This document shows, piece by piece, positions 45,644 to 53,152 of a stretch of 64,000 nucleotides of DNA. The translations under genes were made by a program, and so were the position numbers. The DNA is from Alphaproteobacteria bacterium (GTDB lineage: Bacteria; Pseudomonadota; Alphaproteobacteria; UBA828), in the NCBI GenBank assembly GCA_965214705.1, contig CBDCCI010000001.1, positions 608,001 to 672,000 of the forward strand, read 5' to 3'. The stretch's first letter is position 1. The number at the start of each line of letters is the position of its first letter. The notes below the pieces were generated by a model. That model was given only the letters and a program-made list of their open reading frames with translations, ran no database searches and was not told the DNA's origin.

Positions 45644-47568
45644 TGGGGCCCGGCACCGATCGGCACCGTTGGAGCCTGTCGCGATGGCCGCAAATCGGGT
45701 GTCGTTGCCCTTACACGCTGAGCATGTCCACGGGGTCTTCCGACGTCTCAACGGTGCGCTCCGAAGGCGCCGGCGATACCGCTGTCGCCATCCGTTGCAC
45801 CGAAGGTGCCGGCAACACCCGTCGGATGCTCGCTCGGGTTGGCTCCGTTACCGAAGAACGCCGCGCCCCACTCTCCTTGCCACCGGGCATCCGACCCGCC
45901 TCCGGAGACCTCCCCCCTCCACACTGACCAGTCCGATATGAACGCTGTCTCGAAACGCAGCTCCGTCGGAATGGACGCCGCACCATTTGCGGGGACGAAG
46001 TCAAAAATCACACCGTCCAATCTGCCATCGTCCATACTCGTCCCGAAGTCGGCCGTCAGTTCCACGTCAGCCTCGAAAGAGCCCACATCCGAGTCGTTCG
46101 ACGATCCGCCCGTATAGTACATCCCGATTGCATCGCCGACGTATATGGCGGTGCCGGTTAGCCTCTGCATGTGAGCCGGTTCGAACGGATCTCCGCCACC
46201 GGCAAGGACGCCGAAGTCGACCGGATCGAAGCTCGTAGCATCGTCCGGCAAATAGAGCCAGTATCCGAGGCTCAGATAATCGGCGGTCGGTACTTCGGCA
46301 GAAAAGGTCGGACGAAGTACTACTTCGTCACTGCCTGAGGCGGCAGGCGTGAACACGACATTGCCACCGTATGGATAATAGTACCCTTTCGGCTGGGCGA
46401 GTTCGAGCCAGCACGGTGATCCGCTGTCGCATGTGAACGTCCCCGATATGCCGTCCAACGTCCCGTCCAAGCCGTCGTCCGGTATCCGAACGCCTTGCCA
46501 GTCGTGACCCGGAAGAAGGTCTGGAATGTCGGCCAGAACGATGGTTCGGTCCGTCTCGCCGTAGCCAACCCAGGGTGCGCCCAATGTGTCGGAGTCGTCC
46601 GCATCGGTCGCGAGAGTGACTTCAAGCGTGCCGCCACTGATGTACTCTTTCCTTCCCTGGAATACCTGCCAGCCATCCCCCAGACCGTGAACTCCGGCTA
46701 TTTCAGACGTCGTGATGCTCCGTCCTTGCCAATCCACGAGCGGATCAGACGGCAGAGCCGCGCTTGTGTGCGAAGTCAGGAATTCCAGGGCATTTGCGTC
46801 GTTGCGGTAAGGAATGGCATTAGCGTACCGCAACGGCGAGGTCTGCACGACAATCGAGTGCCCGGAGCCGGAGATAGGGCTCTCAATACGCCAAATGTTG
46901 GTGTGGCCATCCGCCACACTGACGACCTCGGCTATGGCGTCCGCGGCGGAGGGCTCCTGCCGATCATCGCTTGCTCCGAACGCACCCGTGATGCCGTCGC
47001 GGTCGAAGACGCCGCCGACCTCCTGGTGCAACGGACCGTAGAACATGCCGCTGATCGTGGGATCCACTCCGTCGTTGAAGGCCCCGTTCGTAAGGGAAAG
47101 ATCGTTCCAGAGCATGTCGGGGCGTGCGGTCCCCGCCGCCACATCATGGATGCCGGTGAACGAGACATCGATGTCGGGCTCGGAAAGATCGTCTACGTCG
47201 ACCGTGGCGTCGCCGAGGATCAGGCGGGTGGTTCCGGGCTCGTAGCGCGTCACATCCAAGCCGACCATGACGCCTGTCCATGTGGCGGAGCCCAGGCCAG
47301 TCGGGTTCGTGCCCGTGTATCGGCCAAACGATACGCCGTCGGTGCTAAGTGTCCGGCCCGAAATGAATTGAGTGATTTCAGTGTGTTATGCTTCACTGGT
47401 TGTGTCCAAACAATCAGCGAGGCACAAGATGTGGACTGAAATCACTCGACCGAAGTATGACCGCACGGGGCTGCGTTACGCAAGCGATGGAGTGGACGCC
47501 CCTCCCGGCGGCATCGCGATGTGCCATGTTGGCGGTGGTGTTAACGCCAAGAGAGGAAAGGGGCGTCC

Positions 47569-48591
47569 ATGGACCAAGCTACCATGATCGGGATCGATCT
47601 TGCGAAGAACAGCTTTCAACTGCACGGCGCGGGCAGCGACGGGTCGGTCGTATTCCGCAAGAAGCTGAGCCGAGGGAAAGTGCTGGAGTTTCTGGCTTCC
47701 CAGCCGAGTTGCCAGGTGGCGATGGAGGCCTGCGCCGGCGCTCATTACTGGGGCCGGGAGATCGGCGATCTGGGTCACACGGTGAGGTTGATCCCACCCC
47801 AATATGTCAAGCCTTACGTCAAGCGTGGGAAGAACGACGCCGCGGATGCAGAGGCGATCTGCGAGGCGTCGTCGCGTCCGACGATGAGTTTCGTGGCGGT
47901 CAAGACGGCGGAACAGCAGGGTCGGGTGATGCTGTTCCGGACCCGCGATCTGCTGGTGCGCCAGCGCACCCAGACCATCAACGCGCTACGCGGCCATCTG
48001 GCGGAGTTCGGCGTTGTTGCGGCCCAGGGCCCCGCTCATGTCGCCCGCTTGGCGTCGGCGCTCGAGGATCCGGACTCGGGCCTGCCGGATGCGGTCCGCG
48101 AGTTGGGCAGCCTCCTGTTCGAACAGGTCGCCGGCCTCACCGAGAAGATCGACGGCCTGGAGAAGGACATCCATGCGAGCGCGCGGCAGGATGCGGAAGC
48201 GCAGCGCCTGATGAGCGTGCCGGGGATCGGCCCGATCACGGCGATGGCGATCCAGGCTTTCGCGCCGCCGATGGAGGGCTTCCGGCGCGGCCGGGACTTC
48301 GCCGCCTGGCTCGGCCTGGTGCCGCGCCAGCACTCGACCGGCGGCAAGCCGCGGCTAGGCAAGATATCGAAGATGGGCCAGCGCGATCTCAGGCGACTGC
48401 TGATCACGGGCGCAATGGCGGTCGTCCGCTGGGCTGTTCGGCGGGGCCGGACGAGCGACCCGTGGCTCGCCAGGATGCTGATGCGCAAGCCGCGCATGCT
48501 GGTCGCCGTGGCGCTGGCCAACCGGATGGCGCGCATCGTGTGGGCGCTGATGACGAAGAAGGAGCGTTATCGGGCTCCCGCAGCCGCCTGA
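47569..48591 (+). CDS. IS110/IS1111 recombinase
   Basis: IGIDLAK, MEAC, KNDAADAEAI, VPGIGPITA, GLVPRQHSTGGK. Confidence 0.95.
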   Translation: MDQATMIGIDLAKNSFQLHGAGSDGSVVFRKKLSRGKVLEFLASQPSCQVAMEACAGAHYWGREIGDLGHTVRLIPPQYVKPYVKRGKNDAADAEAICEASSRPTMSFVAVKTAEQQGRVMLFRTRDLLVRQRTQTINALRGHLAEFGVVAAQGPAHVARLASALEDPDSGLPDAVRELGSLLFEQVAGLTEKIDGLEKDIHASARQDAEAQRLMSVPGIGPITAMAIQAFAPPMEGFRRGRDFAAWLGLVPRQHSTGGKPRLGKISKMGQRDLRRLLITGAMAVVRWAVRRGRTSDPWLARMLMRKPRMLVAVALANRMARIVWALMTKKERYRAPAAA

Positions 48592-48900
48592 GAGGCGTCA
48601 AAGCGGGTAGTTGTCGGGGACGCGGGCAGGTCTGAGGAAAGGCAAGGGCAAACGGTCAATCGAGACGGGGTCGGGAAAACCAGCTTTCGGATGCAGAGCC
48701 TTCGAGCTCGCGTCGACCGTGGCGTCGCCGATCAGGCGGGTGGTTCCGCTCGAAGCGGTCACATCCAAGCCGAAGCGATATGGACCCGATCCGCGCATCT
48801 CCATGAGGGCCCGCGGCGTGTGACGTGCCGCATTGAGAGGCCGGACACACGACAGCACCTGACCGCATGCGCTGAGCCGACCGAAGAAAATGCTTGCGTC
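48592..48900 (+). ncRNA. Putative bridge/seek RNA region of the IS1111-type element
   Basis: AAGCGAT (48773-48779) equals the left target flank; CTCCAT (48799-48804) and ACACACGA (48845-48852) match the element ends. Confidence 0.7.
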
Positions 48901-51900
48901 AAACGGGGCGTCCACACACGATCTGAGCGATGCCGAATGGCGCGTGATCGAACCCCATATGCCGGCGCCGAATGCCCTGGGCCGGCCGAGGACGACGGAC
49001 CTGCGGGAGGTGGCGAACGCCATCCTGTATGTCTTGCGCTCGGGCTGCCCCTGGCGGTTGCTGCCGAAGGACTTTCCGCCGCGTTCGACGGTGCAGCGCT
49101 ATTTCGCCGCGTGGCGGGACGACGAGCTGTGGGCGCGCATCAATCACCATCTCCTGATGGCGGCCCGCGAGGCCGAGGGGCGCGAGGCCAGCCCATCGGC
49201 CGGCGTCATCGACAGCCAGTCGGTCAAGACCACGGAAAGCGGCGGCCCACGGGGCTTTGACGCGGGCAAGAAGATCAAGGGCCGCAAACGCCACATCCTC
49301 ACCGACACCGGCGGCCTGCTGGTTGCCGCTCAGGTCCACGCCGCCAACATCCAGGATCGCGACGGCGCCCCCTCGGTGCTCGCGTCCATCCGCCACGCCT
49401 TCCCCTGGCTCCGTCATGTCTTCGCCGACGGCGCCTATGCCGGCCCCAAGCTCGAGGCAGCTTTGCAGCGGATCGGTCAGTGGACCCTGGAGATTGTCAA
49501 ACGCCCGCACGGCGCACGAGGTTTCGACGTCCTGCCGCGTCGATGGGTGGTCGAACGCACACTGGCGTGGTTGAACCGCAATCGACGGCTCGCCAAGGAC
49601 TTCGAGGCCACCGTCGCCACCGCCCAAGCGTGGCTCTTCATCGCCAGCGTTCAGCTCCTCACCAGAAGACTGGCAAGACATTGAAAATCAACACCTTATT
49701 ATGGGCCGGACACTAAGGCTGGACGACGCCGGCAACATGCTTTCATCGCAGGAAGTAACACTTGGTCCCCTACATTGGAGGTGCTCTTGTACAATAAAGC
49801 TACTGTACTCAGAATGCCCAACGTATACCTCGAAGCTGTCCCAGTTATCATCGTCAATACTATAGATAGAATCACCTTTGAATTGGGACATATTTACGCC
49901 GTTGTGTTCCAATATGGGCTTGACGGTGTAACCCTCCGGCAAGGAGTCAAGCGTCAGCCAATTCGTAGACCTAGGTTCCTGATCTATGGGCTGGCCTAAT
50001 GGCTTCCATTCTCCGGTGTCCACCTGGTAATGACGGCCTTCAACCTCATGGGTGGTTTGCCGTGCCGTTCTGTTATAGAGGTTAAGGACTTGACCCTCCG
50101 ACAGATCGAGCGTCGGGTTGCCGTCAGCGAAGCTCTGCCACTTCTCCAATAGCGGTGTCTCGGTGCCGCTGCCGTCGTCCGGCATTGGAAGGCGGGCTCC
50201 GAAGCTGCCTGTGATTTCCGCCGCGTTGTGGTGGAACGTGCCCGCGGCTTCCTCGTGGCCGGAGCCGAGAAAGGCTCCGTTTAGAATTCCAGCGGCGCCG
50301 TCCTCGAAGGTCCCGTCGGCCTGTGTCCGAAGATCCTCGAAGCCGAAGTCGGGTAGGGCACGCCGGCCGTCACGGCTCGCGACTTCCGAAAACGCCACGT
50401 CCACGAGACTGGTGGGGAGGTGGAAGTCGACAGTGGTGCGCCCCTCGACGAATGGATTATCGAGGGGATCGTGGCTGTACTGGTATCCCAGCATCGGGCC
50501 GGACCACTGCGCGCTTTCGTCCGGAAGGCGGCCCGCCACCGTCCCCTGGACGCCGGTCCACACCTCGAAGAGACCTGCAGGTGTGCCGAGCGTGTCGGTC
50601 CACGCATCGCTGTACTTCTGAAAACCCGTCCCGAACGCGCCGTGCTCCATCGTCCCCATGTAACCATCGACGACATGGCGTCCCTGGCGGCCGTCGGTGG
50701 ACGCAGCCGACTGCCGTTCGATCCGCACTAAGCCGATATCCTCGACGAGTCTCGCCGTATCTCTCCCGTCCCATCCGGCCGTTGACGCGAGCACGTCATC
50801 GCGCGTCGTCGCGGTCCAGTCGTTCCATTGACCCGCAGAAGCATTTCGCATCTCGCACGAGGATCCGGTGTCGCACCGATACCGGTGCCAGCCGTTGTCG
50901 ACAGGATCCGCCGCTCCAATCCGATGGGACAAGCCCGCCAGGTGGTCGGCGGTGGCGATCGCCTCCTCGCGGCGGGGCCGGTCGTCGTGCGTAGCGCCAA
51001 AGCTCGCGAGCAGTCCGGCGCGAGGGTCGTGAAGCGTTCCCGCGACCTCCTCATGCTCCGGTCCGTAGAAATTCGCCGAGAGCGTCGAATTCTCGTCCGT
51101 TCCGACAATGGCGTTCTCCGTGAGCGCGAACGGGTAGTATAGAGCGCCGTCGGCAAATGCCTCGGGGTCTCCATCGGAATAGACCGCGAGCGAGGTGAAA
51201 CTCGCGGTGCCGTCCAGGGTGCCGAGATCGACCGCCAGGTTGGCGTCTCCGGTGACCGGCGGCATCCAGTCGTAATCGATTGCCGCCCCGATCAAGCCAC
51301 CCGCATAGCAGACCTTCCCGAACGAGTCCTCCAGCGGGTAGGACATGCCGAAGTCCCCGGTGCTTCGGTAGCCGAATGCGTCGGCGCCCACCTGCAGAAG
51401 ATCGGTTACCTCGAGGGCATGCCAGCGATTGGCTGCGCCATCGTAGTGCGGTTGCGGGTCGGCCAGGTCAATCTGAAGATCGCGGGATACGCTGAGCGTG
51501 AAACCGGCATGGTCTGTCCAGCCCGCGAGCCCGTAGGTCTCGGGCCGCCCGCTCTCCTCCGTCACGGTCATGCCGAGATCCGCGAGGAACGCGAAGTCGA
51601 CGGCATGCGGCAGAAATGGCCGCAACGCCGCGTCCTGACTGCAGTACGCCATGACGGAGGCGCAGACGCCGCTGTGGCCGAAATCATATACGGTCGCCTC
51701 GGGGTCCCGCTCGCCCTCGACCCAGGCATGTGTGTCGGAGGCGTCCTGGAAAGGCGCGGGGCCGCCATGGAGGGCAACGACGTTGGGTCCCGTCCGGGTG
51801 CCGGATTCCGTGTCGGTGTAGGGTGTGTGGGGCACCGGCTCCGTGTGACCCCACCATGCGCCCAGCACATGCCCGATCTCGTGGGTGAGCGTTGCGAACA

Positions 51901-53152
51901 ATCCGGCCTCGCCGGCCTCGTGCAGATATCCTCTGTCGATCGCCACCGATCCGAAATGGGGTTCCCAATCGCCGGGCGGCTGAATCCCCGGAATCGCCGA
52001 GCCGGCCACACGCAGGTCATTGTCCCGGACAGCGATCTCAAGCCCGGTGCTGACCTCGCCTCCGGCCCCGACGTAAACCTGAACAGGGGGACCGGGATAG
52101 TTGTTCAACCAGCCCTTGAGTTCGCCTTGTTCCCGCTCCCACGTGGACCATGTGTCGGCAATCCGGCGGCTCCAGGCCTTGCCGGCGCGTTCGAGCATGG
52201 CACGGAACGCCGGATCGTCTTTCATCGACGGCCCGGCGCTCGAGAGGTCGAATGCGATCGAGAGCGTGTCGGCCGGTCCGCCTGTCCAGCGTCCATAGGT
52301 CACACCATGGCGGGTCCCAAGTACCCGAACCTCGTCGCCATCCTGAAGATCCGGGGCCGCCGGTGCGTCGTCGGAACTCCGAGCCGCCGCTTTGAGCGCC
52401 GTAAGGTCGGCCGCATCGGCGTCCGATGCTGACGTGCTCAGCGAAAGACCATCCGCGATGCTCCGAGTGCGCCGGTGCCCCCAATGATCGAGCAGGTCAG
52501 CCGCGGTCAGGTTGTTGCGGGGACGCTCGGCCAGACGCACACTGCCCGGGCGGGTCAGTTCGGGTGCGGGGGGGGGACGAGAAAAGAGTGTCTACCCCGG
52601 AGCGACCGCTTGAATCGGCTGGCTCGAAAGCCATGCCCACGTCGCTCGCTACGCCGTTCGTATCCGCCGTCGTTGCCGTTCCAGACGGAGCACCGCTTGT
52701 CACAACTGTGGAATCGCCGGACGACTGTGCGCCGCTCTCCGTCTCCGTTGAAGGGAGCCCCCGCATGTCGGCGCTGGGTTGTTCGCCCGCGATGATGGTT
52801 TCACTGCCAACAGATTCCGGGCGCTCCCAGCTCGTCACGGGTCGATCCGTGCCGGATCCCTGGCAGGCCGCGAGCGAGAGTGAGGCAACTGCCATGACAG
52901 GAAGGGGAGAGAGTCGCAAGGCGGGATTCGCGCGCACCATGTCATTTCCTCATCCGACAGATGTTAATCTGAACTTCCGGGGCGGGTATTGGACGGAGCT
53001 AAGTGCTTGCCAAAGCTGCCTGAGCCGACGTTTCGGGCGGTTGCGTACCGGGAATGCTACAGGCTCACGCCGAGCAGGTCGAGGACGTTGTTGGCGCTGT
53101 TATCTGTGTCGGTTCGGTCAATTTCCGGTTCAGAACACACTGATCAACAGTC

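Follow-up and report, generated by a model that had tools for sequence, protein, structure and literature searches.

Nested mobile elements at the locus

In the window (the whole 64,000-nucleotide stretch of DNA that was analysed) there is nesting at three levels: an IS1111-family element interrupts the transposase gene of the IS5 family, and this IS5-family element is itself within a large TbpB-like lipoprotein gene (45748-47348 plus 49714-52540). The downstream part of this surface-lipoprotein gene, 45748-47348 on the minus strand, matches PF01298 (E 1.4e-8) and its frame is open to the edge of the IS5-family element. PF01298 is found in both of the ORFs that flank that element and, by coordinates, the two lipoprotein frames agree after removal of the element and one TAA. 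The IS5-family element (47349-49713, plus strand) has inverted repeats, AGTGTCCGGCCC, and flanking TAA; blastn against the genome puts its boundaries near 47345 and 49716 and finds a 95% copy, without interruption, at C3:1735966-1736904. The N-terminal coding part of its transposase (NF033580, 253.8 bits) is at 47430-47488 and the rest at 48923-49684. This coding sequence contains the target of the IS1111-family element, GCAAGCGAT^CTGAGCG (the caret marks the point of entry).

The IS1111-family element occupies 47489-48922 on the plus strand, as judged by alignment of its ends with those of other copies and by a contig joint, 47484 to 48919, recorded as 'skips 1434, both 4' in four of four related public runs. 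Its length is 1434 bp with the insert that is the subject here and 1375 bp without it. There is a 4-nt ambiguity (CGAT) in its register, so that 47485-48918 fits as well as 47489-48922. A gene for a DEDD transposase/recombinase of 340 aa (47569-48591, plus strand) starts after just 80 nt of the element. Its product matches PF01548 (E 2.1e-14), PF02371 (E 1e-24) and NF033542, 'IS110 family RNA-guided transposase' (323.6 bits against a cut-off of 140). The non-coding right end, from the stop at 48591 to the end of the element at 48922, is 331 nt (272 nt without the insert). The left subterminal inverted repeat, GTGGACGCCCC at 47492-47502, is the perfect reverse complement (11/11) of the right one, GGGGCGTCCAC, which is read from the sequence at 48905-48915 (both plus strand).

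Passages of PMC11187229 and PMC11208160 give as marks of the IS1111 group subterminal inverted repeats of ~11-13 bp with short asymmetric extensions. According to the first of these sources the extensions beyond the repeats are 7 bp left and 3 bp right, and the C-terminal domain has a GL-P----S/TG motif. In the register 47485-48918 the extensions here are also 7 bp left and 3 bp right, and GLVPRQHSTG in the transposase translation corresponds to the motif. The element is a member of the IS1111 group of the IS110 family, all of the marks tested (DEDD/PF02371, repeats, non-coding end and motif) being present. With ISEc11, ISPa11 and ISKpn4, as passages of the two papers describe them, it shares the DEDD transposase, the GL-P----TG motif, subterminal repeats and a downstream non-coding region, and also site-specific insertion without clear duplication.

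Guides in the non-coding end

The initial annotation, made from the letters alone, took the non-coding end to encode a bridge/seekRNA, and domains, repeats and the co-variation of guides with flanks bear this out. The predicted RNA architecture rests on guide/flank co-variation in 14 relatives together with a consensus structure. Of 30 loci returned by the search 18 were full-length candidates, from which L016, L029 and L041 were dropped since they have no recognisable left end at the expected place. The alignment has 15 sequences, 14 other copies and the window copy (for one of them, L033, the end was extracted wrongly and the alignment is partial).

The 8-10 nt immediately before a conserved T(A/T)TGGACCC differ between elements, and in each they equal the left flank of that same element. 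The left-target guide is CGTAAGCGAT in L013 and L028, AACCGAT in L017, L031 and L038, AAGTCCG in L018, CTGTTGAT in L019 and AAGTGCGAT in L021. A guide matches its own left flank at a mean of 5.6/7 positions (12 elements), and the flanks of other elements at 2.9/7 (114 pairings with different guides); L020, out of register by one base in this count, scores 2. A second variable segment, ~25 nt upstream of the left-target guide, is the reverse complement of the right flank. Examples are AGGGCTC/gagccctac (L020), TGGCC/ggccatg (L021), CCGAAC/gttcgg (L019) and CCGGAT/atccgg, and by eye the complement is seen in 11 of 12 elements, L038 being the one that does not fit.

For the window copy this places the T guide, CTTTCGGATGCA (48684-48695, plus strand), on the 5′ side of a predicted target-binding loop. 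Its TCGGAT is the reverse complement of the core plus right flank, and it varies with the right flank among relatives. Between the two guides is a hairpin, GAGC-CTTCGA-GCTC (48696-48709, plus strand), taken from the consensus structure of 12 relatives; its stem is GAGC/GCTC, or GTGC/GCAC in L021, and hairpin pair 65/76 is AU in 10 of the 12, UA in one and CA in one. The consensus structure has 28 pairs, most of them invariant and 2 with compensatory changes, and the closeness of the sequences makes this covariation support weak. Conserved stems, GGGNTCGGG/ACCCGATCC and CCA/TGG, frame the variable loop. Further 3′, ACACACGA (48845-48852, plus strand), in the same sense as the right end of the element, is the probable right-donor guide. 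By eye it co-varies with that end, ATAGATGT going with the end CCATAGAT (L019 and L032) and ATAGACGA with the end CCATAGAC (L020).

In the IS1111 seekRNA as set out in a passage of PMC11187229, the complement of the top strand comes first, 5′ of that of the bottom strand, and both overlap in the target, with which the order and overlap of the two guides here agree. Likewise, for ISEc11, ISPa11 and ISKpn4 the loop is described as having a 5′ segment that complements the target top strand and a 3′ segment that matches it, with overlap at the core, and so it is here. Unlike in those three elements, 59 extra nt are present inside the left-target guide of the window copy.

In the predicted RNA the insert is in the 3′ side of the target-binding loop, where it cuts the 10-nt left-target guide (CGT^AAGCGAT). 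The first 3 nt of this B guide, CGT, are at 48711-48713 and its last 7, AAGCGAT, are intact at 48773-48779 (both plus strand) and identical to the left flank at 47482-47488, while other copies read CGTAAGCGAT, identical to their own left flanks. A position in the loop beside the left-target guide had been proposed initially and is confirmed by the guides and flanks of the relatives. The RNA of the window copy is thereby predicted to gain a 59-nt self-folding addition between hairpin and guide. Minimum-free-energy folds with and without the insert were no better than those of shuffled sequences (z +1.04, −0.61 and −0.71); the outer stems are still formed when the insert is included, which says little about function. 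No Rfam family was matched at E<=1, except a chance snoRNA at 15.3 bits, and among public runs sharing words of this stretch 0 rows are recorded as RNA.

A patch copied from the lipoprotein gene

The 63 nt at 48711-48773 are a same-orientation copy of 69 nt at 47196-47264, a stretch read here on the plus strand of the minus-strand lipoprotein gene; the distance from start to start is 1515. Sixty-two of the 69 alignment columns are identical and the exact blocks are 21, 17 and 16 nt. Missing from the insert are three donor stretches, GGA, GG and C (3, 2 and 1 nt, 6 nt in total), and the one substitution is a T>A at the position of 47243. When the 63-mer was searched by blastn-short against the whole genome (3 contigs, 7,920,168 bases), the donor was the sole significant match besides the query itself (89.9% over 69 columns, E 2.2e-11), the remaining matches being of 21 nt or less with E 0.02 or worse. 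A better donor elsewhere was considered and rejected, as that search found none in the whole genome.

This copy from ~1.5 kb away in the same orientation, with six bases deleted and one changed, had been noticed in the initial annotation and is verified here. The same is true of its position directly before AAGCGAT (48773-48779), which repeats the 7 bases left of the element (47482-47488). The ~63 bp said there to have been copied describes the match correctly but overstates the gain. The CGT that opens the match and the A that closes it are part of the uninterrupted element as well, and the net insert is 59 bp (48714-48772, plus strand), since both the alignment to other copies and a contig joint, 48713 to 48773 ('skips 59', no ambiguity), give that length. 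The outer CGT and A of the donor are junction microhomologies, 3 nt left and 1 nt right, common to donor and element.

Some features of the patch may be mentioned for themselves. The three deletions sum to 6 nt and so keep the lipoprotein reading frame (..GLDVTASSGTTRLIGDATVD.. versus ..GLDVTRYEPGTTRLILGDATVD..). Three of the differences from the donor, the losses of GG and C and the T>A (48745-48757), together make a perfect 5-bp inverted repeat, CCGCT-CGA-AGCGG. In addition, the hairpin of the element, 45 nt upstream, contains at 48700-48707 the reverse complement, CTTCGAGC, of GCTCGAAG in the insert. This match and the 5-bp hairpin are a possible quasi-palindrome signature, an 8-mer match at such a distance being not unlikely by chance. 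A genome-wide scan for local direct repeats (isolated short pairs, 100-5000 nt apart) gave 222 candidate clusters, 64 of them isolated, and the insert/donor pair is among the 23 listed rows of 40-160 nt (which include 1 self-match and 1 duplicate).

Other copies and relatives

The genome has three other copies of the element: at C3:633555-634928, at C1:1911865-1913234 (91%), and an interrupted copy of ~75-79% on C1. Outside the insert the C3 copy is identical to the window copy over 1223/1223 nt and then over 150/151 nt. In all three the sequence runs uninterrupted through the site, as GAGCTCGCGT|AAGCGATATGG (GGGG|CAACGAT in the distant one). Whether other copies read GAGCTCGCGT|AAGCGAT without the insert had been posed as a check in the initial annotation, and they do.

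The insert-free non-coding end (351 nt) was also searched against 101 genomes, i.e. the genome itself and 100 relatives. It was matched in 15 of the 101, including 11 of the 20 other genomes of the same genus. Counted from the table of matches, 34 are unbroken from query position 2 to 338 or beyond and are 334-357 nt long in the subject, and none of these 34 near-full-length ends has an insert. The single match in the 101 genomes that is split (query 1-200 and 201-351) is the window's own copy. The 59-bp insert is private to the window copy of the element, and the thought that the segment might be a normal part of all family members is contradicted by the 34 relatives and the three other copies.

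The ~75-79% copy (C1:1390821-1396505; loci L004, L007 and L008) has an interruption of ~4.3 kb between query positions ~1006 and ~1012. The interruption is close to the 3′ end of the transposase gene and probably represents a further nested insertion.

Public sequence runs

Twenty words sampled from 48640-48850 were looked up in indexed public runs. No indexed run holds the words of the insert; the best runs hold 0.50-0.55 of those sampled, and the calculated share of words that do not touch the insert is ~0.51. The insert-free joint, 48713 to 48773, is in contigs of four of the four related runs examined, which come from two studies and from related strains that are possibly not the source sample. 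The contig with this joint has depths of 10.2, 13.1, 12.9 and 130.5 in the four runs, and the element body has 5.5-9.5, 8.3-18.3, 12.6-15 and 95-160. Because the joint is no less deep than the body, no copy of the element in those four strains seems to carry the insert. Among the pieces listed for the four runs no contig covers the insert, and contigs drop rare variants. A 27-mer across the junction had 0 matches in metagenome contigs and a 25-mer internal to the insert had 0 in metagenome contigs and species-representative genomes, searches from which records of the genome itself were possibly excluded.

Around the site the assembly matches short-read contigs of the related runs over long pieces with 0-2 differences and 0 gaps; in run X17, 941 nt match with 0 differences and 0 gaps. 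This high agreement at the level of single bases speaks for a consensus better than raw-read quality here.

Two of the runs, X17 and X18, have a contig that fits from 48722 (inside the insert) rightwards and has unlike letters before; the unlike left sequence is not in the window genome.

In run X2 there is A at 47243, where the window has T (Tyr to Phe in the lipoprotein gene; depth 21.7/21.7). This is the same letter as that of the sole substitution in the insert, and runs X1, X17 and X18, as well as the G001 ortholog, have T. Neither a real insert nor an artefact explains the coincidence.

Proposed origin as a templated insertion

The element is an ordinary member of a well-understood family, with a copy-private 59-bp filler insertion in its target-binding loop. 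We put at about 0.5 the probability that the insertion is a one-off, error-prone templated event, involving a switch of template, that damaged the RNA of the window copy. An IS1111-family element, guided in the ordinary way by its bridge/seekRNA, would have entered a matching site in the transposase gene of the IS5-family element, which had earlier split the surface-lipoprotein gene. Later, and in place, a single accident of DNA synthesis would have copied ~60 nt of the same strand out of the lipoprotein gene, 1.5 kb upstream, and left them in the IS1111-family element. The nascent strand, ending ..GCGCGT, would have left its template, re-annealed via the 3-nt microhomology CGT, been extended at poor fidelity (three small deletions and one substitution) to ..GCCGA, and returned through the 1-nt microhomology. 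The patch splits the 10-nt left-target guide into CGT and AAGCGAT and so would be a lesion of the guide RNA and not a new guide. Movement of the element might still be possible with RNA from the identical intact C3 copy; a passage of PMC11187229 reports for ISEc11 that the non-coding region works in cis or in trans.

Insertion in place, after arrival of the element, is deduced from the donor adjoining the window copy only. The window copy has otherwise the same sequence as the C3 copy, so that the insert is younger than a transposition which was itself very recent, and the 7 differences from the donor must go back to the copying event itself. Seven differences in one such event point to a low-fidelity polymerase during the template switch, or to repair synthesis started from 3 nt of homology. 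A search of the genome (98.5% complete) found no Ku domain, which makes classical end joining unlikely and favours a template switch in replication or repair.

Among the features expected of a templated insertion, a near-identical template close by (1.5 kb), on the same strand, and microhomology at the junctions are found here. Filler insertions and other products of microhomology-mediated template switching likewise have a short nearby copy in the same orientation, 1-3 nt of microhomology and copying errors. Such switching is documented mostly in eukaryotes, and for the present case the mechanism is one that we infer. Known bacterial examples of template switching are quasi-palindrome corrections and short slippage events; to our knowledge error-prone templated insertions of 60 nt are poorly documented in bacteria. 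Judged by the listing of literature records, nothing directly comparable to such an insertion in bacteria was found. Against this origin speaks the absence of the insert from the public runs, metagenome contigs and species-representative genomes searched. The divergence of 10%, by deletion only apart from the substitution, resembles raw nanopore error and so counts against a real insert, and the T>A that equals the X2 variant of the host gene counts against a simple in-place copy from the element's own neighbouring allele.

Alternative explanations

An artefact of assembly or library preparation, as the initial annotation had proposed in the form of a long-read chimera, is a serious possibility, at odds distinctly short of even. 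The 59 bp would come from one or a few chimeric long reads and would have survived polishing since no short read maps there; the chimera could have arisen by a polymerase jumping templates in vitro, or by an error of consensus or bridging in the nest of repeats. The absence of the insert's words from every indexed run fits such an origin, as does the finding in the four related runs of only the insert-free joint, at full element depth, though those runs may not be the source sample. The three indels are all deletions in short repeats or a G-run and, at ~10% divergence, are like raw long-read error. The site is, moreover, within nested repeats, the IS1111-family and IS5-family elements each having other copies. 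However, around the site the assembly and the short-read contigs agree at nearly every base, and consensus steps normally remove an insert present in a minority of reads. The 3-nt and 1-nt microhomologies fit polymerase template switching, which could also happen in vitro. The T>A is a natural allele, that of X2, and the chance of a random read error producing it is estimated as ~1 in 200 (1/69 sites x 1/3 bases).

It is improbable that the patch was copied or recombined from a different lipoprotein allele or paralogue that already had its exact sequence, for instance one from another strain. Both the preservation of the reading frame by deletions that sum to 6 nt and the identity of the T>A with the X2 allele would follow naturally from such a source. 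No such sequence is, however, present in the genome, nor in metagenome contigs or species-representative genomes (0 matches). An ortholog of the donor stretch is in one of 20 genomes of the same genus (G001, 72% identity), and that has none of the deletions and has T; run X2 has the substitution but no gaps in that contig.

That the element's own RNA-recombinase complex had a part in the event is very improbable. In this scheme the complex would recognise the DNA coding for its guide, a half-site equal to the left half of the target, and damage it, with repair filling the lesion with nearby DNA. The insert is inside the 10-nt guide, and for the guides and hairpin (~45 of 1375 nt) the chance of a random hit is estimated at ~3%; a passage of a preprint (10.64898/2026.08.31.748434) has IS621 recombining on substrates that match only half of its bridge RNA. 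But this is a single event, for which position alone proves nothing, and the place to expect a break is the core (after GAT), 7 nt away from the insert. None of the 34 near-full-length ends of relatives has an insert there, loop length varies by no more than 1 nt in the 14 relatives that were aligned, and no core-adjacent base of the guide was replaced. The half-match work described in the preprint passage, furthermore, concerns the donor arm of an IS110-group element and not the target loop of an IS1111-group one. Least credible is the extension by which the loop would be a hotspot for the entry of new sequence, with self-attack on the guide-coding half-target, filler repair and new guides carved out later, and with the window copy a fresh, unrefined example. 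Also considered and set aside were a DGR-like or reverse-transcriptase origin and an antisense role of the insert towards the lipoprotein mRNA, whose gene the IS5-family element has already split.

Guide exchange and retargeting

The initial annotation had also suggested that capture of local DNA might be a natural route to reprogramming. Comparison of the letters does not support capture of host DNA as a means of retargeting, because the core-adjacent guide is intact, the element's own site is explained and relatives swap guides at fixed loop length. The seven guide bases that adjoin the core (AAGCGAT) are unchanged, only three outer positions are altered, and no guide was replaced. The site occupied, ..TTACGCAAGCGAT^CTGAGCG.., is accounted for by the ordinary guides, with 7 nt on the left and, on the right, ATCTGA with one G:T pair. 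The relatives, as stated, lack any insert (0/34), and all 14 that were aligned hold loop length within 1 nt despite having different guides. ISEc11 and ISXne4, in a passage of PMC11187229, are related elements that differ in both guide segments, with corresponding targets, and the same is seen among the relatives here. Whereas those two swap guides at constant length, the window copy has no core-adjacent exchange and a loop longer by 59 nt. In the literature covered (titles, abstracts and passages of PMC11187229 and PMC11208160) no natural element with foreign DNA in the loop was found.

If real and recurrent, the insert would bear on how RNA-guided transposons come to recognise new targets, and on the amount of extra RNA that a target-binding loop can accommodate, a matter of interest for engineering of bridge recombinases. 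For one unsupported event that is private to a single copy, mutation or artefact is the most sensible description. The ~15 close relatives are of value apart from the insert, as a clean natural set in which the flanks and three guides (two for the target and one for the donor) change in step.

A contig from run X1, corresponding to 48685-48775 of the window and alike on both sides, reads 31 different letters where the window copy has its target-binding loop. On its sequence it is a close relative with exchanged guides, and would represent natural retargeting at constant loop length. At locus L033 (G005:C4), two diverged copies of the element (119-1498 and 1501-2858, 75-76% identical to the query) are arranged head to tail with 2 nt between them.
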